Assembly (NCBI GenBank): GCA_031409275.1 | Contig: JANNXA010000016.1 | Location: 1-64,000, forward strand | DNA: 64,000 nucleotides | Source of the DNA: Planctomycetota bacterium | Lineage (GTDB): Bacteria; Planctomycetota; B15-G4; SIAN01 | Direction: 5' to 3' | Shown here: positions 3,408 through 20,321 of the stretch, piece by piece | Layout of the letters: each line of letters starts with the position of its first letter | Position numbering within the stretch: the stretch's first letter is position 1 | Notes under the pieces: generated by a model | Told to the model about the DNA's origin: nothing | The model's database searches: none | Seen by the model: only the letters and a program-made list of their open reading frames with translations | Translations under genes and position numbers: made by a program

Positions 3408-4858
3408 TCGGCGATCCCCAGGCGCAGTGGCAGCGCGCCCGCGAGGAAGAGCGCGCCCGCTTCGAGCGCAAGCCCGATCGGCAGCGTCCACCACGGCGCG
3501 AGGTCGGCCCACGCGAAGACGACCAGCGCCACCGGCAGCGCGGCCAGCAGCGGCCGTGCAAGCGCGCGCGACAACGCCCATTCGCCGGTGGCGCGACGCA
3601 GCTCGAGGCTCACCCAGCCCAGCACGAACCACTCGGTCAACAGCGTCCCCAACGCCGTGCCCGGCACGCCGAGCCAGCGAATGGTCGCGCTCGACAGCGC
3701 CACCTTGAGCAGCAGCGCGACGATCGACACTCGTGCCAACACTCGCTGGCGGCCAAGCGCGGTGAGCGCGTGCATCTGCGGATAGGTGAGGAAGATCGCG
3801 ACGCCCGCGCCGATCAGCAACGGCAGCGCCTCGCGCAAGTCGCCATTCGCGGCCAGGAAGCTCGAGTAGCTCTCCCCGTCGAGATGGCGCGCCCAGAAGA
3901 GGTAGAGCACCTGGCCGCTCCAAGCCACGCCGATGGCGACCGCCGGCAACGCGATGCCAGCCAGCACCGTGCAGGCGCGTCGCGTCAGCGCCATCAGCGG
4001 CGCCGGCCCGCGTCCCGCCGCGCGCGTCAACGCCGGAAAGAGCGCCGACGACAGGTAGGTCGGCACGGCGATGGCCAGCGACAGCATCGGGAAGGTGCGC
4101 GCGTAGCGTCCGTTCGCCGCGTCGCCGCAGATCGAGTTGAGCAGCAGCGCGTCCATGCGGAAGTAGAGCGTGGAGACGGCCGCCGAGAGACCGAGCGGCA
4201 CCATCGCGATCAGCAGCTCGCGCATCAGCCCCGGCTCGACGGGACCGAGCAACGTGACGTGGCGGCGCGCGGCGAACCACGGAACCAGCCCCTGCACGAA
4301 GAGGCCGCCCGCGAACGCGAGCAGGAAGAGCCCAGGCTCATGCACGTCGGTGTGGGTCAACGCGACGACGGCTCCGATGTAGAGCCCGAAGCCGACCAAC
4401 GGCGCCAGCGCGATGGCGGTGAGGCGCACGCGCGACTGCAGCCACGCCGCCGCGGTGCATGGCGCCACCGCCAGCAGGTGAAGCGACGCCACCATCGGCA
4501 GCGCGGCGCGCGCGAGGCTGCCCTCCTTCCACCACGAGATCGCCGCGCACAAGACGACGCAGCCGGCGACCGTCGCGAGGCGGATGCGGAAGGTCGCGCG
4601 CAGGATCGCCGCTTCGCGCTCGGGTCGGCGGGTCACTTCGCGCACCGCGATCGCCATCGACCCGAGGTCGACGAGCGCGCCGACGATGAGGAAGAGCGTG
4701 AAGTGGAAGTTGAAGCGGCCGAGCCGCTCGTCGCCGAGATGGCGGCCGATCAGGACGATCGCCGACGCCGAGCAGAACGCCGAGGCGAGGCGTGCGGCGA
4801 GCTGCAGCCCGGTGCCGGACAGCACCCGTCGCTCGAGCGTGGTTCGTTCGTGGTTCAA
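3404..4858 (-). CDS. Wzx-like oligosaccharide flippase / polysaccharide export protein (MOP superfamily)
   Basis: 484 aa with many hydrophobic segments; LVDLG...AVREV and LYFRMD motifs; coupled to the GT4 gene. Confidence 0.85.
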   Translation of the reverse strand: MNHERTTLERRVLSGTGLQLAARLASAFCSASAIVLIGRHLGDERLGRFNFHFTLFLIVGALVDLGSMAIAVREVTRRPEREAAILRATFRIRLATVAGCVVLCAAISWWKEGSLARAALPMVASLHLLAVAPCTAAAWLQSRVRLTAIALAPLVGFGLYIGAVVALTHTDVHEPGLFLLAFAGGLFVQGLVPWFAARRHVTLLGPVEPGLMRELLIAMVPLGLSAAVSTLYFRMDALLLNSICGDAANGRYARTFPMLSLAIAVPTYLSSALFPALTRAAGRGPAPLMALTRRACTVLAGIALPAVAIGVAWSGQVLYLFWARHLDGESYSSFLAANGDLREALPLLIGAGVAIFLTYPQMHALTALGRQRVLARVSIVALLLKVALSSATIRWLGVPGTALGTLLTEWFVLGWVSLELRRATGEWALSRALARPLLAALPVALVVFAWADLAPWWTLPIGLALEAGALFLAGALPLRLGIAE

Positions 4859-8977: not shown

Positions 8978-11900
8978 ATGGCGGCTGCAGCATCGAGCGA
9001 CGAAGGCGCGGACCGCGCGAGCAGCGGCGAGGAGGCCGATGTCCGCGACGCCGTCGAGGTCCTCGTGGAGGAGTTCTTCGAACGGCGGCGCGCGGGCGAC
9101 GCTTCCGACGTCGGCGAGTTCGCGCGGCGGGTGCCCGGCCGCGAGGCGGAGTTCCGGGGACTCGTCGCGGCGCTCGGGATCCTCGAATCGGCGGCCACGG
9201 CGGCGCAGGCCGCGGCGACGCGCGCGACAGTGCCCGAGCAGCTCGGCCGTTTTCGGCTGCTGCGCAAGGTGGGCCGCGGCGGAATGGGCGTCGTCTACGA
9301 AGCGATCGACGACGAACTCGGCCGCCACGTCGCGCTGAAGGTCCTGCCAGGACATGCAACGCTCGATGAGCGCGAGATCGCGCGCTTCCGCCGCGAGGCG
9401 CAGTCCGCGGCGCGATTGAACCACCCCCACATCGTGCCGGTGTACGGCGTCGGCGAGGAGGCCGGCACCCACTGGATCTCGATGCAGTTCATCGCCGGCT
9501 CGAGCCTCGACCAGCTCGCGCGCGCCGCTCGCGACGATGGCACGGCACGCATGGAGGCGCGCGAGGTGGCGCGCCACGGACTTGCGCTCGCCGACGCACT
9601 CGCCTGCGCGCACGCGGAAGGAGTCCTCCATCGTGACGTGAAACCCTCGAACGTGCTGCTCGATCGCAGCGGAACGGTGTGGATCACCGACTTCGGCCTC
9701 GCGACCGCGGAAGGCTCGGTGGCCATCACGCGCACCGGCGAGACGGTCGGCACCCCGCGCTACATGGCGCCCGAAGCGTTCTCCGGATGGGCCGATCCGC
9801 GCACCGACGTGTGGGGAGTCGGCGTCACGCTCTACGAGCTGCTCTCGGGACACCCGCCGTTCGATGGCACCGACCGCGCGCAGCTGCTGAAGCAGATCGT
9901 GGACCACGAGCCCAGACCGCTGCGCAGCGTCGAGCCGCCGTTGCCGCGCGACCTCACCACCATCGTCCATCGCTGCCTGCAGAAGGACCCCGGCGCGCGC
10001 TACTCCTCCGCGCGCGACCTCGCCGACGACCTGCGCCGCTTCCTCGAAGGCGCCCCGATCCGGGCGCGCGCCCCTTCGCTCGCCGATCGCGCGAGCCTGC
10101 TGATTCGCCGCCATCGCGGCGGCGCCATCGCGGCAGCCGTCGCGCTCGTCACGTTGATCGTGCTCCTCGGTGGCTGGGCCGAGACGCTGCGCCGCAAGAA
10201 CGTCCGGCTCGCGACGGAGATGGCGCGCGCCGAGGAGAATCTCGGAGTGGCCAGCGACGCGATCCAGAGCGTCCTCGACGAGGCTGCCGACGTCATCTTT
10301 CGCGCGCCGGCGCTCGATCCGATGCGGCGCCGACTGCTCGAGGCCGCGCTCGCCTTCGAACTGCGGCTGCTCGCGCATCAGGAGCAGAGCCCCACCAAGC
10401 GCTTCGACGTCGCCCTCGCGCACGTTCGAGTCGGCGCCATCGATTGGTCGCTGCAACGCTTCGAGGAGAGCCGCTGTCACTACGACGCGGCGGTGACGGC
10501 CTTGCGCGCCAGCCGTCGTCTGCCGGGTGGCGCGAACGTCGAATCGACGACGATGCAGCTGGCGACCGCGCTCGCTGGCATCGCATGCGGTGCGCGAGAT
10601 CGCGGCGACCTCGCGACGGCGGAGGCCGCGCTGCGAGAAGCGCTCGCGATGATCGAGGAGTTCATCGCCGGTGCGCCGCGCAGCACCGACCAGGCGTTCC
10701 ACCTCGTCGACACGACCACGCTGCTCGTCGAGCTGCTGGCGCGGCAACGCCGGGCCAGCGAAGGAGCAGCGCTCATGCGGGCGACGCTTCCGCGGGTCAC
10801 GGCCTGGCTCGATCGCGACGACGCCGCGCTCGCGCCCTCGCGAGTGCTGCGCGATGCGTGGCTGCAGCTCGCGGACGTGCAGTTCCAGGCGGGCGAGACC
10901 GGCGCGACGGTCGAGACGTTTCGCGGTGCGCTCGCGATCTCGCAACGGCTGGTCAGTGTCGCGGACCCGGACGTGCGCGACCTCGAGATCGATGCGTGCC
11001 GGCGCTCCTGGCTCGGCGGCCTGTTGCATCGGATCGGTCGGGCGCCGGAGGCTCTGGTGCTCCTCGCCAACGCGAGCGCGGATCTCGAGGCGATCGTCCG
11101 CCGCTGGCCGATGGTGCCGGAGTTCCGACGCGATCTCGCCACCGCCCTCACTCGCGGAGCCGTCGCTGCCGGATCGAGCGATCCAGCCGCCGAGGTCGAG
11201 GCGACGTTGAAGCGCGCCATCGAGCTCGCGGACGAAGGACTCGCGCAACGGCCGGACGACGCGAGCTTTGCGTTCGCTGCGCTCCAGGCACGCAACGTCC
11301 TCACCACGCGGCGCGACGAGCGCGATGAGCCGGACGCGGCGTACGCCATCGCGCTCGACGCGACCCGGCTCGTCGAAGCATGGGATTCCTCGATTGCGAC
11401 CTGGCCGTCCGCCGTCGTCGAGCAGGCGGCCGTCGCGTGGTACGACCGCGGTGTCGTCGAGCGCAAGCAGAGCCGAGTCGACGCTGCGTGCGCTTCGTTC
11501 GCGAACGCCGCCAAGCTCCTCGACATGCAGTCGAATGGCGGCAACGAAGAGCCCGCCGCGCGCGACCTACGCCTGCGTATGAGCGTCGCATCAGCCGACC
11601 TGGAGGCGAGCCGCGGCGCGATCGAGGTGGCACTCACGACATGGGGGAACGTCGAAACGGCCGTGCGACGCCTGCTCGAATCGGCGGATCTCGCCGCCGA
11701 CGCTCGCGCGGGCGATCCGACGCGGGCCGACCTCGCCGCGCTGCTCGTCGAAGCGCTGAACCTCGACGCGAACGTGCGCGCGCGCCATGGCGATCCGGCC
11801 GATCGCGGCGGCGCGGAGCAGCGGCTCGCGGAAGCGCTCCGGCTCGGGAGCGAACTGGTGCAAGGCTGGCCCGAGCGCGCCGACTTCGCCGCGGCGCTGG

Positions 11901-12415
11901 GGATGGCACATGGCGACGCCGGCTGGCTGGCGAAGGTCGCGCAAGATCATCCGCGTGCACGCGCCGAGTTCGCTCTCGCGCTGCCACTCCTCCAGCGGGC
12001 GCTCGAACGCGAACCGCGCCAACGCAGCTGGCGCAACGCGCTCGCGACGGCGCTCGACTGGCTCACCGTCTCGCTGCAGCCCTTCGACGACGCGCACGAC
12101 CGCGCCGCGATGGCGACGTTGCTCGATCGCGCGGCTGCCGCTGCGAGTGCGGCGACGGCGGACCCGGAAGTGCAGTGGGAAGCCGCGCGCCTCTTCGCGC
12201 GCGCCGCGTTCGTCGCCCACGGTCCGCTCGAGCGCCTGCTTGGCGGCGACGCTCGCGATCCGTGGGCCGACGCGGCGATGAAGCACCTGCGCATCGCGAG
12301 CTCCGCCGGATTCGGCGATCCCGGCCGGTTCGAGGGCGACGTCGCGTTCGCCTCGCTCGAGCGGCGCGACGACTTCCGCGACTGGCTCGCCGACCTCACG
12401 GCGACGCGCCGCTGA
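8978..12415 (+). CDS. Hanks-type Ser/Thr protein kinase with TM segment and TPR-like helical C-terminus
   Basis: GRGGMG, VALK, HRDVKPSN, DFG, GTPRYMAPE; TM GAIAAAVALVTLIVLLGGWA; 1145 aa. Confidence 0.95.
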   Translation: MAAAASSDEGADRASSGEEADVRDAVEVLVEEFFERRRAGDASDVGEFARRVPGREAEFRGLVAALGILESAATAAQAAATRATVPEQLGRFRLLRKVGRGGMGVVYEAIDDELGRHVALKVLPGHATLDEREIARFRREAQSAARLNHPHIVPVYGVGEEAGTHWISMQFIAGSSLDQLARAARDDGTARMEAREVARHGLALADALACAHAEGVLHRDVKPSNVLLDRSGTVWITDFGLATAEGSVAITRTGETVGTPRYMAPEAFSGWADPRTDVWGVGVTLYELLSGHPPFDGTDRAQLLKQIVDHEPRPLRSVEPPLPRDLTTIVHRCLQKDPGARYSSARDLADDLRRFLEGAPIRARAPSLADRASLLIRRHRGGAIAAAVALVTLIVLLGGWAETLRRKNVRLATEMARAEENLGVASDAIQSVLDEAADVIFRAPALDPMRRRLLEAALAFELRLLAHQEQSPTKRFDVALAHVRVGAIDWSLQRFEESRCHYDAAVTALRASRRLPGGANVESTTMQLATALAGIACGARDRGDLATAEAALREALAMIEEFIAGAPRSTDQAFHLVDTTTLLVELLARQRRASEGAALMRATLPRVTAWLDRDDAALAPSRVLRDAWLQLADVQFQAGETGATVETFRGALAISQRLVSVADPDVRDLEIDACRRSWLGGLLHRIGRAPEALVLLANASADLEAIVRRWPMVPEFRRDLATALTRGAVAAGSSDPAAEVEATLKRAIELADEGLAQRPDDASFAFAALQARNVLTTRRDERDEPDAAYAIALDATRLVEAWDSSIATWPSAVVEQAAVAWYDRGVVERKQSRVDAACASFANAAKLLDMQSNGGNEEPAARDLRLRMSVASADLEASRGAIEVALTTWGNVETAVRRLLESADLAADARAGDPTRADLAALLVEALNLDANVRARHGDPADRGGAEQRLAEALRLGSELVQGWPERADFAAALGMAHGDAGWLAKVAQDHPRARAEFALALPLLQRALEREPRQRSWRNALATALDWLTVSLQPFDDAHDRAAMATLLDRAAAAASAATADPEVQWEAARLFARAAFVAHGPLERLLGGDARDPWADAAMKHLRIASSAGFGDPGRFEGDVAFASLERRDDFRDWLADLTATRR

Positions 12416-12995
12416 ACTCCGCGAGGATGTCGCGCAGCCGATTCGCCGCACGCAGGTAGCGCAGGCTGGCGCCGGGCGGCGAGAGGTGCAGGAGACGCGC
12501 GACATCGGCATTGGAGAGCTGCTCGAAGTGACGCAGCAGCAGCACTTCGCGGTCCTCCGCCTTCATCGAGTCGAGCGCGACGTGCAGACGAGCGGCGACC
12601 TCATCGCGCGAGGCGACGCCCGACGGCGAGAGGACGCCGCTCTCCGCGATCGCGTTCGCGAGCGTCGCGGCGCTGGCGTCCTCGCGCGCCAGATCGCGCA
12701 TCGCCGTGCCGAGGTGGTGCCGATGCAGTTGCAACAGCTTCTGGCCAGCGATGAAGCGCAGCCAGAGATGGAGCGGCATCGCCTCGCCGTCGAGCCACTG
12801 GGGCAGTCGCTCGATCGCCTCGACGCACGCCTCCTGCACGACGTCGGAGGCATCGACGCGGCCGCGCAGCCGCGGGTCCATCCGCAGCTCGACCATCCGG
12901 CGCAACCGCGCGCGACGCTGCGCGACGAACTCGCCGAACCGCGACGGGTCGATGCGGAGCTGCGCGCGCAACGCCTCCTCGTCATCGCCGTCCAT
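12396..12995 (-). CDS. ECF sigma-70 factor, planctomycete type
   Basis: RLRRMVELRMDPRLRGRVDASDVVQE (region 2), WLRFI, SPS, DREVLLLRHFEQLSNADVA (region 4); overlaps the 3' end of the kinase convergently by 20 bp. Confidence 0.92.
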   Translation of the reverse strand: MDGDDEEALRAQLRIDPSRFGEFVAQRRARLRRMVELRMDPRLRGRVDASDVVQEACVEAIERLPQWLDGEAMPLHLWLRFIAGQKLLQLHRHHLGTAMRDLAREDASAATLANAIAESGVLSPSGVASRDEVAARLHVALDSMKAEDREVLLLRHFEQLSNADVARLLHLSPPGASLRYLRAANRLRDILAEFSGASP

Positions 12996-13039
12996 CTGCT
13001 GCACTCTCCGCGGCCACGACGTGGGCGCGTAGCCGCCCG

Positions 13040-13894
13040 TCAACGCCGCCGCAGCGCCCGCCCGCTCCACGCCGCCGCGAGCACTCCACACAAGAGCGCG
13101 ACCGCCATCTGCGCCTGGTTGAAGTCCAGCTCGTTGCCGATCACGGCGGCCGCGACGGAACTCGTCACGGCGATCAGCGGCGCCGCGACGAACATCGGCA
13201 ACGCGGCCGGACAGAGGCTCTTGGCGATCAGCGCGGGCAGCACGAGGCACCCGAACGAATAGAGCATTCCCGACACGCGCATCGAAAGGCCGAGCGCCAG
13301 CCCGAGCCACGCCGCCGCCAGCGCGTCGGTGCGGCGGCGAACGCCCAACGCGCGAGCGGTCGGCGCGTCGATGGCGAAGAGCAGCAGCGCGCGTCGGCGC
13401 ATGAAGACGAAGAGCAGCGTCGCCGCGGTCAGCACCGCCAGCACGACGACATCGAGCGCCGTCGCCCCGATCCCGCTCGAGGCGAGCAGTCGCTGCACAT
13501 CGTCGAGGCCGTGCGGGCTGTGGGCGATGATCAGCAGCGCCGCGCTGCCGCCCAGCAGGAAGACGAAGCCGGTGATCGCCTCGTGGCTCTCGACGGCGGC
13601 GGTGCCGGCTCCGCCGCGGGCGGTGATCAACGCGGTGACGACGGCGAAGAGGACCGCGACCATCGACAGGAACGTGTCGGAGCGAAAGAAGCTCTCCTCG
13701 GCGCTCCATTCCGAGCCCAGGCACAAACCGATGGCGATGCCGAGCGTGGACGCCTGCGCGATGGCGGCTCCGACGAAGATCTGGTCGCGCACGACGACGA
13801 AGACGCCGACCACCGAGAGCAGCAGCGCGACGAGCCACGCCGCGAGATAGGTCTCGCGGAAGAGCGGCCAGGAATCGAGGAACGAGGCGATCAC
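13040..13894 (-). CDS. Metal (Zn/Mn) ABC transporter permease, ZnuB/MntB-like
   Basis: Hydrophobic, 284 aa; GVFVVVR..IFVGAAIAQ, EAITG, LLFAIDAPTARALG; GTG start overlaps the ATPase stop. Confidence 0.88.
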   Translation of the reverse strand: MIASFLDSWPLFRETYLAAWLVALLLSVVGVFVVVRDQIFVGAAIAQASTLGIAIGLCLGSEWSAEESFFRSDTFLSMVAVLFAVVTALITARGGAGTAAVESHEAITGFVFLLGGSAALLIIAHSPHGLDDVQRLLASSGIGATALDVVVLAVLTAATLLFVFMRRRALLLFAIDAPTARALGVRRRTDALAAAWLGLALGLSMRVSGMLYSFGCLVLPALIAKSLCPAALPMFVAAPLIAVTSSVAAAVIGNELDFNQAQMAVALLCGVLAAAWSGRALRRR

Positions 13895-14670
13895 GCCACA
13901 CCTCCGATCGAGGCGAGACGCGACCGCTCGAAGCCGGGGAGCGGCTCCACCGGGACCGGCGCACCGTACGCCCGCTCGAGTCGCGCCGCGTCGAGGAGCG
14001 CCGCGGCCGGCCCCACGTCGACCGTCCCGTGATGGACCAGTGCGACGTGGGTGGCCAACGCCGCGGCGACCGAGACGTTGTGGCTGACGTAGACGATGGC
14101 GAGGCCATGCTCGCGATTGCGCCGCACGAAGAGCTCGAGCAGTGCACGTTCGGTCACGAGATCGAGGTGGCTCATCGGTTCGTCGACGCACAGCAGTCGC
14201 GGGCGTCGCGCCAACGCGCGCGCGACGATGACGCGCTGACGTTGGCCGCCCGACATCGACCAGTAGCTCGCGTGGAGTCGGTCGAGCAGCCCGACCTGAT
14301 CGAGCGCCTCAGCGATGCGCTCCTCGCGTTGCGCTCGCGTGAGCTTCAGCCCGACGAGGCCGAGCGCGACGAGTTCGTGCGCCGTGGTCGGCAGGTTGCG
14401 CACCAGCTCGCAACGCTGCGGAACGTAGCCGAGATCCGCGCAGGTCACCCCCGGCCCGTACCCGGCGAAGCCGCGCAGCGGCGGCAGCACCCCGAGCATC
14501 GTCGAGAGCAAGGTCGACTTGCCGGTGGCGTTGGTGCCGAGCAGGAACCAGAACTCGCCCGCGCGCACCTGCATCGAGACGTCGCGGAGCACCGTCAGGC
14601 GACCGTGCCCCGCGACCAGCTCGCGACAGGAGAGGAGCGCGGAAGCTTCGAGAACCGGCATGGCGCTCAT
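13891..14670 (-). CDS. Metal ABC transporter ATP-binding protein, ZnuC-like
   Basis: GTNATGKST, GYVPQ, MSGGQRQR, VDEP, SH. Confidence 0.92.
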   Translation of the reverse strand: MSAMPVLEASALLSCRELVAGHGRLTVLRDVSMQVRAGEFWFLLGTNATGKSTLLSTMLGVLPPLRGFAGYGPGVTCADLGYVPQRCELVRNLPTTAHELVALGLVGLKLTRAQREERIAEALDQVGLLDRLHASYWSMSGGQRQRVIVARALARRPRLLCVDEPMSHLDLVTERALLELFVRRNREHGLAIVYVSHNVSVAAALATHVALVHHGTVDVGPAAALLDAARLERAYGAPVPVEPLPGFERSRLASIGGVA

Positions 14671-15734
14671 CCCGGTGGCCGCATCAGCGCGGCGACGATC
14701 AGGCCGACGTCGGCGTCGATCATCGCCACGTAGTCCACGGCGGCGGCGGTCGCCCCCACTTCATGAGCCAGCGTCAGCAGCGGCAACCCGAGCTTCTCGG
14801 CGACGAACTGAGCCGACTTCGGATCGAACCCGGGCGCGGTGAAGACGAGCTTCACGCCGGCTGCCGGCGCGTCGCGGATCAGCTCGCCCAAGTGGCCGGT
14901 CGAAGGCGCGATGCCGGGCTTCGGTTCGAGGTAGCCCGCGAACTCGAGCCCGACGCGCCGACCGAAGTAGATCCACTGATTGTGGTCGCAGATCACCTTC
15001 GTGCCGGCGAACGGCCGCAGCGCGCCGAACCAGCCGCCGAGTTTGCCGCCGCGCCCTTGCTGATCGAGGAACGCGGCGAGACTTCCTTGCGCCTGCAGGT
15101 CGGCAAGCCGCAGCACGGTCTCGGTCGGAAACTCGTCGGCAAGGGCGGCCCCCACCATCGCGGTGCACAACCGCTTCTCGAACGCGACACATCGCTGCGA
15201 AAGCGCGTCGCGTGCCGACGGCCGCAGCTGCGTGAAGCGATCGCGCAGCAGGCGCGCCACCAACAACCCGTTCACGGGATCGGTCATGTAGTGGGGATTG
15301 CCGGCGGGATGCACGTCCCCATGCGATCGATCGACCGGCGTGGTCGGCACCTCGAGCGGCGCCACCACCACCGAAGCGTCGATGAAGCCGGGTTGGCCCG
15401 GCTGCACGCGACCGTTGCGGCATTGTTGCAGGAGGATCGGCGCCCAGCCGATCTCGAGTTCCATGCCTTGCTGGACGAAGACATCGGCCGCCGCCAACGC
15501 CTTCACGTGGCTTGGCCGTGCATCGAGGAAATGGGGGTTCTCAGCTCCTTTCGCGAAGACGGTGACGGCGACGGCATCGCCGCCCACTTCCTGCGCGATG
15601 CTGCCGATCGACGGCACCGTGCAGCAGACGTTGAGCTTCTCCTGCGCGAATGCCGACGCACTGCCGGCGAGGAGCGAAACGAGCAGCGCGACGGCACCCA
15701 CCGGCGAGCGCCCGGTCATTCGAATGGGGTTCAT
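14667..15734 (-). CDS. Metal ABC transporter substrate-binding protein, ZnuA/TroA-like
   Basis: Signal peptide; ENPHF, GDVHPAGNPHY, DHNQW, EPKPGIAPS..H. Confidence 0.92.
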   Translation of the reverse strand: MNPIRMTGRSPVGAVALLVSLLAGSASAFAQEKLNVCCTVPSIGSIAQEVGGDAVAVTVFAKGAENPHFLDARPSHVKALAAADVFVQQGMELEIGWAPILLQQCRNGRVQPGQPGFIDASVVVAPLEVPTTPVDRSHGDVHPAGNPHYMTDPVNGLLVARLLRDRFTQLRPSARDALSQRCVAFEKRLCTAMVGAALADEFPTETVLRLADLQAQGSLAAFLDQQGRGGKLGGWFGALRPFAGTKVICDHNQWIYFGRRVGLEFAGYLEPKPGIAPSTGHLGELIRDAPAAGVKLVFTAPGFDPKSAQFVAEKLGLPLLTLAHEVGATAAAVDYVAMIDADVGLIVAALMRPPG

Positions 15735-15743
15735 GGGCGCCTC

Positions 15744-17060
15744 CTAGTAGGTGTGAGCCGGGTGGTTGCCCACCAGGAACTCGAAACCGATCCAGACGCT
15801 GTGGGCGCGGTCGTGCGCGAGGTGGTCCGCGAGGTCGAGGTTGTATTGCAGGCGCACGCGCGAGAAGTGCGACGGATGCCAGGCCACCATCGGCGAGAAG
15901 CGCTGGCGATCGTCGCGCTGCGGGTCGACGTCGCGCGGATCGACGCCGGCGCCGCTCGAATTCGTGGTCTCCCAACGCAAGCCGGCGGCCCAGTCGCGCC
16001 GGAAACCCCACAACACGTAGGTGTAGAAGCCGGTGTCGTGCAGCGTGTCGCCAGGCAACGCGAACTCGTCGCCGCTGGCGGGCACCTGATCGGGATCGAT
16101 CTGCTGCAGTGTGGTGCCGTAGACGCGGCGAACCGCCTCGCCTTGGAAGATCACGAAGGGCCAGCGCGCGTCGCTCTTCTTGGGCTGCCACTTGATCTTC
16201 GCGTCGGCGCCGTAGATGGCGCTGCGCGTCGACTTGCCGGCGGCGCTGGGACCCCACGCCCCCGACAGCCCGAACTGGCTGACGGTGGCATCGGAGAGGT
16301 CGAACGACTGCAGGAAGCGCGAGCTGTACATGAAGTCCGCGAGGCTGCGCGTCTCGCGTTCCTCGACGAGGTGGCCGCCGGGCGCCGACTCTTCGTCGGT
16401 GAAACGGAAGCTCTTCATCGTCTCGCCGCGCGAGTTCTGCACGCCGACCAGCAGTTCGGCGAACCAGGGCAGCGGTGTCAACCAGGAGAGGCGAGCGCCC
16501 TGCCCGCGCATCCCATCCTCGCCGAAGACGCGGCTGTGGATCACCGGCTGGTCGATGAAGTCCCACGCGTGCGGATGAACCGAGTTGATGCGGCCGAACT
16601 CGGTGAAGTACTGGCCGATCTTGAACTGCAGCCCGTGGTCGAGCGCCGTGGTGCGCGCGAAGACCTCCTCGAGCTCGAAGTTGGACTCGCCGGCTGGATC
16701 GATGAAGTAGATGAGGTGCGACTCGAAGTTGAAGTAGGGGTCGACTGCGCCGATCCCTGACAGCTCGAGCTGCGAGAGCGTGAATCCCCGTTGCCTGGGG
16801 TCATGCCCCCCACCCTGCAGCTGCTCGATCGAGGCGTCTTGTTCGGTCGAGGTGCCAGCGTTCACCAACGCGTCGAGCGACAGGTCGAGCAGTCGAAGCT
16901 GCCCGCCGAAGAGGTTCATGGAGCCGGAAGTCGCGGCTTGCTGCTGGCCCGCCAGCGCCTGGTCGAGCGCCTGCTGGAACTGCGGATCGGGTTGTTGAGC
17001 GGAAGCGCTGCCGAATAGCAGTCCGCACCAGGCGGCTGCCGTGGAGAAAGAAGCATCCAT
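15744..17060 (-). CDS. Putative outer-membrane beta-barrel/porin associated with metal uptake
   Basis: Signal peptide; GGHDPRQRGF, AVDPYF, FGRIN..HPHAWDF, SHFSRVRLQY, C-terminal GNHPAHTY; directly upstream of the ZnuA/C/B-like genes. Confidence 0.8.
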   Translation of the reverse strand: MDASFSTAAAWCGLLFGSASAQQPDPQFQQALDQALAGQQQAATSGSMNLFGGQLRLLDLSLDALVNAGTSTEQDASIEQLQGGGHDPRQRGFTLSQLELSGIGAVDPYFNFESHLIYFIDPAGESNFELEEVFARTTALDHGLQFKIGQYFTEFGRINSVHPHAWDFIDQPVIHSRVFGEDGMRGQGARLSWLTPLPWFAELLVGVQNSRGETMKSFRFTDEESAPGGHLVEERETRSLADFMYSSRFLQSFDLSDATVSQFGLSGAWGPSAAGKSTRSAIYGADAKIKWQPKKSDARWPFVIFQGEAVRRVYGTTLQQIDPDQVPASGDEFALPGDTLHDTGFYTYVLWGFRRDWAAGLRWETTNSSGAGVDPRDVDPQRDDRQRFSPMVAWHPSHFSRVRLQYNLDLADHLAHDRAHSVWIGFEFLVGNHPAHTY

Positions 17061-17156
17061 CGTCGATCGATTCCCGTGCCGGCCCCGACGTGGCGAGTGG
17101 CGCCACGCGCTCGGCCGAACGGGCGGGCGGGGCCGGTGAGGACCCGCGAAGTGCCG

Positions 17157-17654
17157 TCAGGCGACGAGGAGCGCGCAGCGACGAGGCGACGCAACCGCGA
17201 CGGGCGGTCCGCGTGCCTGCGAGAAGACGGCGCGTTGCGCGGGCGGTGACTGCCGCACTTCGGCGCGCGCGAGACGCTCGACGCGAAGCGGCGCGATCGC
17301 GTACGGAACCGGCGCCTCGACGCGCCGCTCGAACAGCGAGGCGCAGCTCTGGCAACCGGCGGCGTCGTGCAGGCGCGCGTCGTGCGAATGGTGGTGATGC
17401 CCCGGCACGTCGCAGTCGCCGCCGTTCTGGCAGCTCGTCGCGAAGGTCGCGTGGGCCGGCAGGACGGGCTGCGGCGCGTGGCAATCCGCCGCTGCGTGGG
17501 AGTCCGCCGCGTGGAGCTCGTCCGCATCGTCATGCCCGACGTGGACATGGAGCGCCGGCGCGATCAGCGCGAGGAGCCACGCCACCAGGAGCGTTGCCAA
17601 CGGCACGCGCATCGGCAGGGCAGCAGGCAAGAGGCGGTGAGGGCGGCGACTCAT
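17157..17654 (-). CDS. His/Cys-rich small protein, DUF2946-like (CxxC ... RGPP)
   Basis: 165 aa; hydrophobic N-terminal segment, 14 His including HHHHSH, CQSC, and RGPP near the C-terminus. Confidence 0.72.
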   Translation of the reverse strand: MSRRPHRLLPAALPMRVPLATLLVAWLLALIAPALHVHVGHDDADELHAADSHAAADCHAPQPVLPAHATFATSCQNGGDCDVPGHHHHSHDARLHDAAGCQSCASLFERRVEAPVPYAIAPLRVERLARAEVRQSPPAQRAVFSQARGPPVAVASPRRCALLVA

Positions 17655-17771
17655 GAGGGGCGGGACTCTACTACGTGCCACCGCGTCGCGGCATCGTTCC
17701 GCGCGCGGCGACGCCATACTTCCGGTCCCGCGACGCCGAACGTGGCGCGCCGGGCCGGAACCGAACGCAGC

Positions 17772-20321
17772 GTGCCGCTCGCCACTCCACTCCTCCTCTC
17801 CACCTGCGTGTCGCTCGCCGCGACGGCGCGCCTCTTCGCGCAGGACGCGCTCCCGACCGCGGCGCCCGTCGTCGACGCCGTGCGCGAACGGGCACGCGCC
17901 ATCGCCGCGATCGTGCCGACCGAGCAGCCGCCGACGCCCCGCACGGTCGACGTCGTCCACTACGCACTGCATGTGACGCTCGACCCGGTCGCGCGCCAGA
18001 TCGAAGGGCGCGCCGACATCGAGCTGCGGCCGAGCGCGGCGCCGCGCCGCATGCTGACGCTCGACGCCGACGGATTGCGAATCGCTGCCGTGACGCTAGG
18101 CGACGCGCCGCTGCCCTTCGTCCTGCAAGGCACCCACCTCGAGATCGACCTCGGTCGCGAAGCGCCGCCGGACGAAACGCTGCGACTGCAGATCACCTAC
18201 TCCGCAGCGCCGCAGCGTGGGCTCTTCTTTGCGCCGGCAGCCGATGGCTCGTGCGAGATGGTCTGGTCCCAGAATCAGTGCCAGATGGCGAGCGCGTGGT
18301 TCCCCTGCCGCGACGATCCCGACGATCGCGCGAGCAGCGAGCTCTTCTTGACCCTGCCGACCGCTTGGCGCTCGATCAGCAACGGCGTGCTGATCGAATC
18401 GACGCCCACCGGCGAAGCGCTCCGCACCGATCACTGGCGGATGGACTTCCCCCACCCGGCCTACCTCACCAGCCTCGTCGCCGGCCCGTTGGTCGAGTTC
18501 GACCTCGGCCGCGTGCGCGACCTGCCGCTCTTCGGCTACGCGCTGAAGGAGCGTCAGGCCGCCGCCGCCGCTTCGCTGCAGCCGACCGGCCGCATGATCG
18601 AACTGCTGGAGCGATTCGCGGGCACGCCCTATCCCTACCCCGTCTATCGCCAAAGCTGCGTCTCCGCGTTCCCGTGGGGTGGGATGGAGAACATCGCCGC
18701 GACGACGCTCGATCAGGACGACCTGCATGCCGTCGACGCCGCACCCGAGGAGCAGCTCGATGCGCAGGCGCTGGTCGTCCACGAGATCGCGCATCAGTGG
18801 TTTGGCGACCTGGTGACGCCCGCGAGCTGGGGCGATCTGTGGCTTGCCGAAGGATTCGCGACCTACGCCGAACTGCTCTGGCTCGAGGCGGAACAGGGCC
18901 CCGAAGCGGCGGCGCTGGGTTGGGGCGCGTTGCACGAGCGCCTCAATGAAGCGCGTCTCGAGGAGGCGCGCCCGCTGGTGAGCACGCGCTGCGTCGAGTT
19001 CGACGACCTCTTCACGCCGATCGTCTACGAGGGCGGCGCCGCGGTGCTGCGGTTGCTGCGCACCGTGGTCGGGCCGGAGAAGTTCGCGACGACGGTGCAG
19101 ACGTGGCTTGCGCGCGGACAGAACCGATCGGTGTCGACGGCCGAGTTCGAAGCGATCGCGAGCGAGGTGGCCGGCTCCGACCTGCAGCCCTACTTCGTCG
19201 AATGGCTGCACGCGCCGGGGCTTCTGCAGCTCGACTGCGAGTGGCGCTACGACGAAGCGAGCCGACGCCTCGAATTGATCGCCCACCAGAAACAGAGCGG
19301 CGAGGGGGTCCCCGAGGTCTTCCACGCGCCGCTCGCGGTCGCCTGGCCGACGGCCAGCGGACGACGGACCGCCACGATCGCGCTCGACGCGCGCCGCTGC
19401 CGCGTCGCCGTCGATTGCGAGGAGCGCCCCGCGTTCGTCCGCTTCAACGACGGCGGCGGGCTGCCCGGAGTGATCCGGACCCAGCAGCGCCCCGAGGAGT
19501 GGCGCGAGCAGTTGGCGCGCGACAGCGACCCGCTCGGCCGCGTCGAGGCGGCGAGCGCGCTGGCGGCCGCCTGGCCGACGCTGCCGGAAGAGCCGACCGA
19601 GGTGCGCGCCGCCACGCTCGCCGCGCTCGGCCGCGCCCTGGTCGAGGAGCCGCAGCCACCCGTGCGCGCCGCCGTTGCGACGGCGCTCGGGACCGTGGGA
19701 GGCGCGGTCGCGATGCGGGCGCTGGGGGTCGCGCTCTTCGATGGCGACGGTCGCGTCCGCATCGCCGCCGCGGAGGCGCTTCGCAAGTTCGCCGACGAAG
19801 AGGAGGCCGCGTCGCTGCTGGTGCGTCGCATGCAGAGCGAGCCGAGCACCAAGGTCCAGCACGCCGTGGTCCACGCCATCGCGGCCCAGAGCGGCGCGCG
19901 CGCCGCCGAAGCTCTGCTGCGACTGGCTCTGCGCGAAGGGACGACCGACTCGCTGCGCGGAGCGGCGCTCGCAGCCGCCGCCAGCTGTTCCGGACTGCCG
20001 CCACCCGGCGTGCTTGCGCTCGCGAGCGCCGCACTCGCGGAATCGGCGGCCGACAAGCCGCTCGAGCGGCGCACCGGAGCCATCGAGGCACTCGGCCACC
20101 TCGCCGCACAAGACGCGACGGCGGCGGACGCGCTCGGCGCGCTGCTCGACGATCCGTCGCCGAAGATCCGAGCGTTCGTCCTCGACGCGCTCCAGGGCGA
20201 GACGATTCCGGCGCGCCTGCTGCCGGCGTTAGTCGCCTTCCACGATCGCGCCGCGCTGCCCGACCAGCGCTCGCACGCGCGCGAGGCGATCGTCGCGCTA
20301 CTGGCCCGCGAACCGCGCTGA
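17772..20321 (+). CDS. M1 family zinc aminopeptidase with C-terminal HEAT repeats, probably secreted
   Basis: GGMEN, HEIAHQWFG...WLAEGFATY (HExxH-x18-E), YEGG; HEAT-like tail; GTG start approximate. Confidence 0.9.
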   Translation: MPLATPLLLSTCVSLAATARLFAQDALPTAAPVVDAVRERARAIAAIVPTEQPPTPRTVDVVHYALHVTLDPVARQIEGRADIELRPSAAPRRMLTLDADGLRIAAVTLGDAPLPFVLQGTHLEIDLGREAPPDETLRLQITYSAAPQRGLFFAPAADGSCEMVWSQNQCQMASAWFPCRDDPDDRASSELFLTLPTAWRSISNGVLIESTPTGEALRTDHWRMDFPHPAYLTSLVAGPLVEFDLGRVRDLPLFGYALKERQAAAAASLQPTGRMIELLERFAGTPYPYPVYRQSCVSAFPWGGMENIAATTLDQDDLHAVDAAPEEQLDAQALVVHEIAHQWFGDLVTPASWGDLWLAEGFATYAELLWLEAEQGPEAAALGWGALHERLNEARLEEARPLVSTRCVEFDDLFTPIVYEGGAAVLRLLRTVVGPEKFATTVQTWLARGQNRSVSTAEFEAIASEVAGSDLQPYFVEWLHAPGLLQLDCEWRYDEASRRLELIAHQKQSGEGVPEVFHAPLAVAWPTASGRRTATIALDARRCRVAVDCEERPAFVRFNDGGGLPGVIRTQQRPEEWREQLARDSDPLGRVEAASALAAAWPTLPEEPTEVRAATLAALGRALVEEPQPPVRAAVATALGTVGGAVAMRALGVALFDGDGRVRIAAAEALRKFADEEEAASLLVRRMQSEPSTKVQHAVVHAIAAQSGARAAEALLRLALREGTTDSLRGAALAAAASCSGLPPPGVLALASAALAESAADKPLERRTGAIEALGHLAAQDATAADALGALLDDPSPKIRAFVLDALQGETIPARLLPALVAFHDRAALPDQRSHAREAIVALLAREPR

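Follow-up and report, generated by a model that had tools for sequence, protein, structure and literature searches.

A conserved leader peptide at the head of an operon for a porin and a ZnuA/C/B-type ABC importer appears to act in cis as a metal-released ribosome-arrest switch, with zinc as the probable metal. We hold this mechanism as a whole with somewhat more confidence than doubt. Its central element, that the leader is a cis-acting ribosome-arrest leader, is very probable, and that the leader itself is real and conserved follows directly from comparison of related loci. The operon lies in a 64,000-nucleotide stretch of planctomycetote DNA, referred to below as the window. The leader, its parts and the downstream genes are as follows.

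17665..17670, minus strand: possible -10 element (TAnnnT), 10 nt 5′ of the leader ATG (hexamer comparison)
17157..17654, minus strand: leader ORF, 165 aa, CruR/CutF-like candidate arrest peptide (codon usage, conserved position)
17550..17609, minus strand: hydrophobic helix, residues 16-35, candidate signal peptide or membrane anchor (sequence and AlphaFold2 model)
17343..17432, minus strand: candidate metal site C75, C81, H86-H89 and C101xxC104 (conservation)
17343-17354, minus strand: CQSC, C101-C104 (sequence)
17214..17342, minus strand: 43-residue spacer from CQSC to RGPP, fixed in length and free in sequence (conservation)
17202..17213, minus strand: RGPP candidate arrest motif (conservation)
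17160..17201, minus strand: 14-codon tail past RGPP, in which bases 17169-17180 are the 5′ strand of helix A (conservation, pairing)
15744..17060, minus strand: porin, predicted beta-barrel, 438 aa (structure model, Foldseek)
14667..15734, minus strand: ZnuA-family substrate-binding protein with H68, H148 and H251 (PF01297, E 2.7e-35)
13891..14670, minus strand: ABC ATPase, ZnuC/AztA-like (PF00005, E 6e-22)
13040..13894, minus strand: ABC-3 permease, ZnuB/AztB-like, start approximate (PF00950, E 9.5e-20)

An earlier note on this DNA had described the leader as a 165-residue ORF with 14 His residues, a CQSC, an RGPP 43 residues further on, a 14-residue tail and a 96-bp gap to the next gene, and all of these are present where it placed them; the leader stop ends 96 nt before the porin ATG at 17060. 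The leader begins with a basic N-terminus followed by the hydrophobic helix at residues 16-35, which is the sole confident part of an AlphaFold2 model with a pLDDT of 52, and this model was left out of the fold search. The leader frame is the best of six by codon usage, albeit weakly (0.089, versus -0.17 to -0.87 for the others and 0.367 for the porin). Third-codon-position substitution bias is absent from the 43-residue spacer, which consequently provides no coding evidence and behaves as a constraint on length only would predict. A TAnnnT-type hexamer is found 10-11 nt 5′ of the leader ATG in all four same-genus genomes, a position implying that the leader mRNA is possibly near-leaderless. 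No full sigma-70 promoter was found upstream of the leader in a scan for consensus promoters.

With respect to genomic context, the gene upstream of the leader is divergent, which makes the leader the first small gene of the operon on its strand. The ZnuA/C/B-like identities proposed in the earlier note hold up well, with PF01297, ABC_tran and ABC-3 matches above cut-offs, and the first gene after the leader is a predicted beta-barrel porin. At the level of substrate, the Zn-specific NCBIfam matches all fall under cut-off; the binding protein scores below the ZnuA and AztC cut-offs, and the best NCBIfam model for the ATPase, AztA, is likewise under its cut-off. The porin model has a pLDDT of 70.5, and the Foldseek matches listed for it are general porins, OprP/O, AlgE and Occ channels. 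The database name of this porin family is TonB-dependent receptor, a class of large barrels with an N-terminal plug domain. We rejected that assignment given the length of 438 residues, the porin, AlgE and Occ structural matches and the lack of any Pfam or NCBIfam match; searches of both profile sets returned no family for the leader either. Close porin relatives come from Planctomycetota records.

Several neighboring and related loci were also recorded. The upstream flank (17754-20321) carries the divergent gene, an M1 aminopeptidase with HEAT repeats, and the downstream flank (8978-13031), judged by eye, a Ser/Thr kinase-like ORF and a possible ECF sigma factor-like frame. A second ZnuA/C/B-type operon, which has no porin, is found elsewhere in the genome (G000:C22:161747-164150; L227, L031); no arrest leader was seen before it, and the adjoining upstream frame looks like an ordinary gene. 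The genome also contains two Fur-family genes (G000:C40:238976-239332 and G000:C7:120144-120485), the latter preceding an ORF that by eye is catalase-peroxidase-like.

The motif pair by itself is not significant, since this 69% GC genome has 46 instances of CxxC with a later R[AG]PP close to a stop among its 129,822 stop-to-stop frames. A chance origin, plausible on that basis, is ruled out by conservation. The porin is present in 23 of the 41 genomes of the order, and a leader lies upstream of it in 20 of these 23 loci. Specifically, in 17 the ORF is hydrophobic, rich in His and Cys, and contains both CxxC and R[AG]PP, and in three it is of an APKT[SP]PP form that lacks CxxC; two of the remaining loci are cut by contig ends, and one has what appears by eye to be a ZIP-like gene instead. 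All eight close leaders share C75, C81, H86-89, C101, C104, A147, R148, P150 and P151 without exception. The HHHH tract, for which the earlier note proposed a role in metal specificity, is limited to this genome's family and one neighbor. The earlier note had held that loss of RGPP in orthologs would tell against its reading; R[AG]PP, CxxC and the spacer length are all kept, the last at 43 residues in seven of seven genomes of the family. These conserved features and their spacing support its proposal of a nascent-chain sensor.

Because a homolog search with the leader alignment returned only 10 proteins, the breadth of this arrangement was taken from the porin. Of 183 genome loci the best 80 were retained, and 71 had 950 nt or more of upstream sequence; a rule-based classifier assigned a leader before the porin to 60 of these 71. 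The count is in-sample in that the motif list had been widened (HGPP, PKxxPP) after seeing the data. The unchanged classifier found one in 48 of 59 metagenome loci (among the best 80 of 501). Six of the genome loci repeat genomes of the order set, and a few metagenome loci repeat genome loci. As a control, the classifier was applied to 2299 long ORFs from this genome and accepted three, namely the leader itself, one true paralog and one junk frame. The 11 genome-locus misses comprise six that show a leader by eye, one that is apparently frameshifted and four with none; in the frameshifted case (L043, about 4020-4140) CxxC and RAPP lie in different frames. Named hosts in the wider scan include Planctomycetota, Verrucomicrobiota, Acidobacteriota, Binatia, Nitrospirota and Myxococcota, and on a Sulfurovum plasmid the same set of genes is preceded by a CQVC...HAPP leader.

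The scan yielded 112 distinct leaders, whose motifs are RAPP (58), PKxxPP (27), RGPP (23) and HGPP (4). CxxC is present in 61 of them, 42-48 residues before the motif with a mode of 44, and absent from 51, and C101 is invariant in a 113-sequence leader alignment. The leader-to-porin gap has a median of 95.5 nt in 104 relatives. Tails past the motif are 1-10 residues long in 105 of the 112, compared with 14 in the present leader; the other seven, with tails of 13-20 residues, all belong to this genome's family.

In terms of the metal that is sensed, the earlier note had spoken of a probable Zn/Mn/Ni importer, and of these zinc is better supported than Mn or Ni by the three-His site and a Vibrio homolog. 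Three His ligands without the Glu/Asp pair typical of manganese sites mark zinc binders. Across 126 distinct relatives of the binding protein, H68 and H148 are found in all and H251 in 125, with no conserved Asp at the fourth ligand position (323-326). The best solved-structure match of this protein is a ZnuA, at an E value of only 1e-12.

A V. campbellii locus encodes homologs of the porin, the binding protein and the permease (E values of 1e-18, 1e-28 and 8e-16, respectively); it lacks a leader, having a divergent gene in its place, and contains two perfect TGTTATnnnATAACA boxes. According to the available portion of PMC9817125, TGTTATnnnATAACA is the core of a predicted Zur site, the omr, znuA2 and znuB2 genes of V. 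parahaemolyticus rise 1034-, 543- and 283-fold under zinc deficiency, and V. campbellii is said to have the same cluster. The Zur-controlled omr-znuA2-znuB2 operon of Vibrio shares these three homologous proteins, as tested on V. campbellii, but has two Zur-type boxes instead of the leader. The earlier note saw no obvious Zur/Fur box here, in agreement with our finding that the best match to the gammaproteobacterial Zur-type box has 6-7 mismatches in the 300 nt upstream of the leader and in the spacer. More broadly, none of 108 leader-bearing loci has such a box within one mismatch (two do at two mismatches), versus 2 of 11 leaderless loci. The consensus is gammaproteobacterial and AT-rich, so its absence is weak evidence in GC-rich phyla. 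If the leader is indeed a cis-acting arrest leader, we consider zinc its likeliest metal with reasonable confidence.

The same arrest switch could instead respond to copper, or to nickel or cobalt, which we regard as unlikely. Both characterized relatives sense copper through CxxC or CxxxC, His-only CutF-like leaders adjoin Ni/Co genes in the accessible text of PMC9973294, a HupE/UreJ gene lies upstream at one leader-bearing locus, and the under-threshold NCBIfam matches noted above leave room for such a reading. Set against these points are the three-His binding protein with its ZnuA match, the Vibrio homolog with its Zur-type boxes and induction by zinc limitation and, for copper specifically, the absence of any copper gene family among the 10 neighbor and regulator proteins scanned.

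How a stall within the leader might be passed on to the porin gene was considered from the RNA between them, for which the relevant elements are listed here.

17061..17156, minus strand: 96-nt intergenic region with competing helices (folding, alignment)
17101-17112, minus strand: 3′ strand of helix A, pairing with tail bases 17169-17180
17128-17136 with 17079-17087, minus strand: stem P1 (folding)
17089-17107, minus strand: CGTGGCG/CGCCACG hairpin (sequence, predicted minimum-energy fold)

The CGTGGCG/CGCCACG hairpin pointed out in the earlier note is present and forms part of the minimum-energy fold, but it is the longer competing helices, and not this hairpin, that are conserved. The 201-nt spacer region as a whole folds no better than shuffled sequences (z -0.04). 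Pairing of leader codons with the porin Shine-Dalgarno (SD) region was assessed in 95 of the 112 leaders, those with a porin start call and a gap of 50-200 nt, or 61 after dereplication; porin starts in this set come from heuristic calls, and related loci do not count as independent of one another. For a 24-nt window starting at the Arg codon, pairing with the leader's own SD region is only slightly better than with GC-matched foreign ones (34 of 61 loci, p 0.089). A scan of 15 windows peaks at +9 to +27 from the Arg codon, where the own porin SD region pairs 2.28 kcal/mol better than GC-matched foreign regions, at 40 of 61 loci (p 2.8e-4, or about 0.004 after correction for 15 windows). No SD-pairing signal was obtained upstream of this peak or past +24 in the same scan of 61 loci. 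The peak begins at the second Pro codon and takes in the tail and the stop, and it is the stretch under a ribosome stalled at Pro-Pro, given the P- and A-site placement in the available parts of PMC12992588 and a typical ribosome footprint length.

In this genome's own family, the long tail could contribute a further pairing. Helix A, a tail-spacer helix of 10-12 bp, can form at the same offsets in all four same-genus genomes, is reached by 0, 6, 4 and 0 of 200 shuffles, respectively, and is found by RNAalifold. Changes on both sides are seen in 4 of 27 pairs, a covariation count that comes from four sequences from which the structure itself was derived. Identity between three genomes is 76-86% over the last 21 nt of the tail and 38-57% over the first 21 nt. 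Helix A is mutually exclusive with stem P1, whose closing point is just 5′ of the porin SD and which in some genomes reaches across the SD itself. A switch between stalled and released states is predicted in two of the four same-genus genomes, not including this one, where helix A has a probability of 0.00 in the folding ensemble and SD accessibility hardly changes between ribosome states. Helix A is within chance in the other four family sequences (26-53 of 200 shuffles), and RBS-opening energies do not separate ribosome states in the family. The idea that the tail serves as an RNA relay is a hypothesis that we consider evenly balanced.

An alternative is that zinc-released arrest controls Rho-dependent termination in the spacer as opposed to SD access. 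CruR works by Rho, a Rho homolog is encoded in this genome (485.6 bits, just under cut-off), the tail helix would hide a C-rich stretch of the spacer here, and no change in SD accessibility is predicted in this genome. Nonetheless, a comparison of 92 regions past leader stops with 102 control intergenic regions revealed no C-over-G excess of the rut-like kind (p 0.26), and complementarity to the SD is greatest precisely where the stalled ribosome would sit, so that we view this alternative as quite improbable and retain SD access as the more attractive target of the switch.

Further from the proposed mechanism, the leader could be an ordinary exported metal-binding protein acting in trans, with an incidental RGPP. 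Its signal-like N-terminus, 14 His and a motif lying 14 residues from the end would suit such a protein, and RGPP and RAPP do occur 11 and 14 times within the 1528 long ORFs of the genome. They are, however, rarer than RGPA (23) and RAPA (78), and the leader shows no confident fold beyond its N-terminal helix, a spacer that drifts in sequence while keeping its length, and other Pro-Pro motifs (HGPP and PKxxPP, in 4 and 27 of 112) at the same place in relatives; a role in trans is thus very unlikely. A SecM/ApdP-type monitor of envelope redox state or of secretion, in which the arrest would be released by Sec pulling or disulfide formation rather than by metal and would set the timing of porin synthesis, is highly improbable given the metal transporters downstream, the conserved His beside Cys and a second leader heading a CusB/CusA-type efflux operon, even though RAPP/RGPP peptides monitor Sec/YidC in other systems and disulfides feature in the CutF model.

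The second leader just mentioned is also His-rich (L226:493-972; G000:C1:31992-32471, plus strand) and ends in RAPP plus four residues. It sits 47 nt before a gene for a CusB/HlyD-type adaptor; what by eye is a CusA/CzcA-like pump comes next, and then an ORF resembling an outer-membrane factor. In the predicted fold, the codons of this leader's tail are paired directly with the SD that follows, and since the leader heads an efflux operon its regulatory sign may be opposite.

The 27 PKxxPP leaders (Myxococcota records within L071-L113, together with L010, L013 and L015) mostly end in PK[AST]SPP in place of RAPP and have a single H..C site 46-52 residues upstream of the motif. The PKxSPP form is carried by cultured Corallococcus, Myxococcus and Pyxidicoccus; PKxxPP was not found as an arrest motif in the accessible parts of PMC12992588. 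Three loci labeled Klebsiella, Enterobacteriaceae and Alphaproteobacteria (L102, L103 and L113) have myxobacterial-type PKTSPP leaders and porins, and these labels may be binning or naming errors. In myxobacterial operons (L096:6994-7851 and 22 related loci), an unannotated gene for a 286-residue lipoprotein-like product separates the binding-protein gene from the ATPase gene; no Pfam match was found for this product.

In the mechanism that we favor, the hydrophobic N-terminus would target the nascent chain to Sec, and the ribosome would then stall at RGPP with the Cys/His cluster, 43 residues off, just outside the tunnel, as RGPP data from other proteins suggest. At low metal the stalled ribosome would keep the porin SD free and allow translation of the uptake genes, a step consistent with the computed pairing across relatives. 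By analogy to CruR, and by the logic of an importer, metal would fold the Cys/His cluster, relieve the arrest and let a helix close over the SD. For most relatives, the anti-SD would be directly under the stalled ribosome, whereas in this genome's family the anti-SD apparently lies further downstream and the long tail may relay the signal by staying paired with the spacer up to the moment when the ribosome passes through the tail.

Bacterial zinc uptake is usually explained by DNA-binding repressors such as Zur. Nascent-chain metal sensing has so far been shown for copper only (CruR, CutF), and no zinc arrest leader was found in the literature searched, which included few subscription papers. 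Should the leader sense zinc, the ribosome would exert in several other phyla the control that a repressor exerts over the same operon in Vibrio. A broader synthesis, which we offer only tentatively, is that nascent-chain zinc sensors replace Zur on porin-ZnuABC operons across Planctomycetota, Verrucomicrobiota, Acidobacteriota, Nitrospirota and Myxococcota, using interchangeable stall motifs that include the candidate PKx[SA]PP, and that the long tail here is an RNA relay unwound by the released ribosome to shut the operon. The leader also offers a way to test directly whether a RAPP/RGPP chain is pulled from arrest by metal-driven folding, a question left open in the accessible portion of PMC12992588.

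Among known systems, the leader would by analogy work like CruR and CutF, though it is not filed as DUF2946. The likeness to these proteins drawn in the earlier note holds in this proposed functional sense; strict family membership does not, as the HMM search that it recommended gave no match of the leader to PF11162 (DUF2946) even at E<=1 (Pfam cut-off 23.7 bits). In comparison, 25 of 113 positional relatives match PF11162 at E<=0.1 (best 7.2e-7), and DUF2946 clusters account for 13 of 30 matches among the leader's Atlas neighbors (0.95, with only 150 shared features). A separate observation is that 2 of 113 leaders match DUF2607 (best E 8.3e-6). The zrg operon of Vibrio, which is under Zur control, has at one of its ends zrgD, a DUF2607 gene in the available text of PMC9817125, and by analogy ZrgD may itself be an arrest leader.

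The closest general framework is that of RAPP/RGPP arrest peptides, defined in the accessible text of PMC12992588 (2025) by a conserved R-[AG]-P-P core in a small secretory protein of <300 aa. The leader has both the conserved core and a suitable length of 165 aa. As described there, arrest occurred in seven of seven Streptomyces proteins tested and in CruR (in vitro for the latter), RGPP was the strongest and most robust motif across contexts, the Arg-dependent stall places Pro-Pro in the P and A sites, and small secretory RAPP/RGPP proteins are enriched before metal genes. Its source table holds at least 9 RAPP leaders before proteins with this porin's database name; the words 'zinc', 'porin' and 'ABC transporter' are absent from the main text. 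In the parts available, that survey differs from the present case in that no zinc leader was tested and long-tail forms were not found.

CruR (Bp2923, DUF2946/PF11162) of Bordetella pertussis senses copper through Rho-dependent termination, as reported in the accessible portion of PMC9426467. Its CxxC-to-RAPP distance is 45 residues with a tolerance of 1-2, and adding five residues strongly lowered copper control. Like CruR, the leader is the first gene of a metal-import operon, with a (here putative) export signal, a long intergenic region and a CxxC about 45 residues before R[AG]PP, here 43; release of arrest by metal to turn the importer off would be a further shared feature. The leader differs in adding a Cys-x5-Cys and HHHH cluster, in lacking a PF11162 match and in its 14-residue tail, versus RAPP plus three residues in CruR. 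The targets also differ, being a TonB copper transporter for CruR and a porin with a ZnuA/C/B-type ABC importer here, and in contrast to the use of Rho by CruR the family evidence here favors SD pairing. CutF of Rhodobacter capsulatus, as far as it is described in the parts available of PMC9973294 and bioRxiv 10.1101/2025.02.05.636593, is an exported leader with a Cys site and a C-terminal Pro-rich stall; its export and its stall have candidate counterparts here. The 165-aa leader exceeds the <150 aa filter of the CutF survey in PMC9973294, and its PP lies just inside or at the edge of the last 15 residues. CutF has CxxxC and EGPPP, a stall induced by copper and a detoxifying oxidase as its target. 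In CutF, as proposed for the present leader, the stalled ribosome opens a stem over the SD of the next gene.
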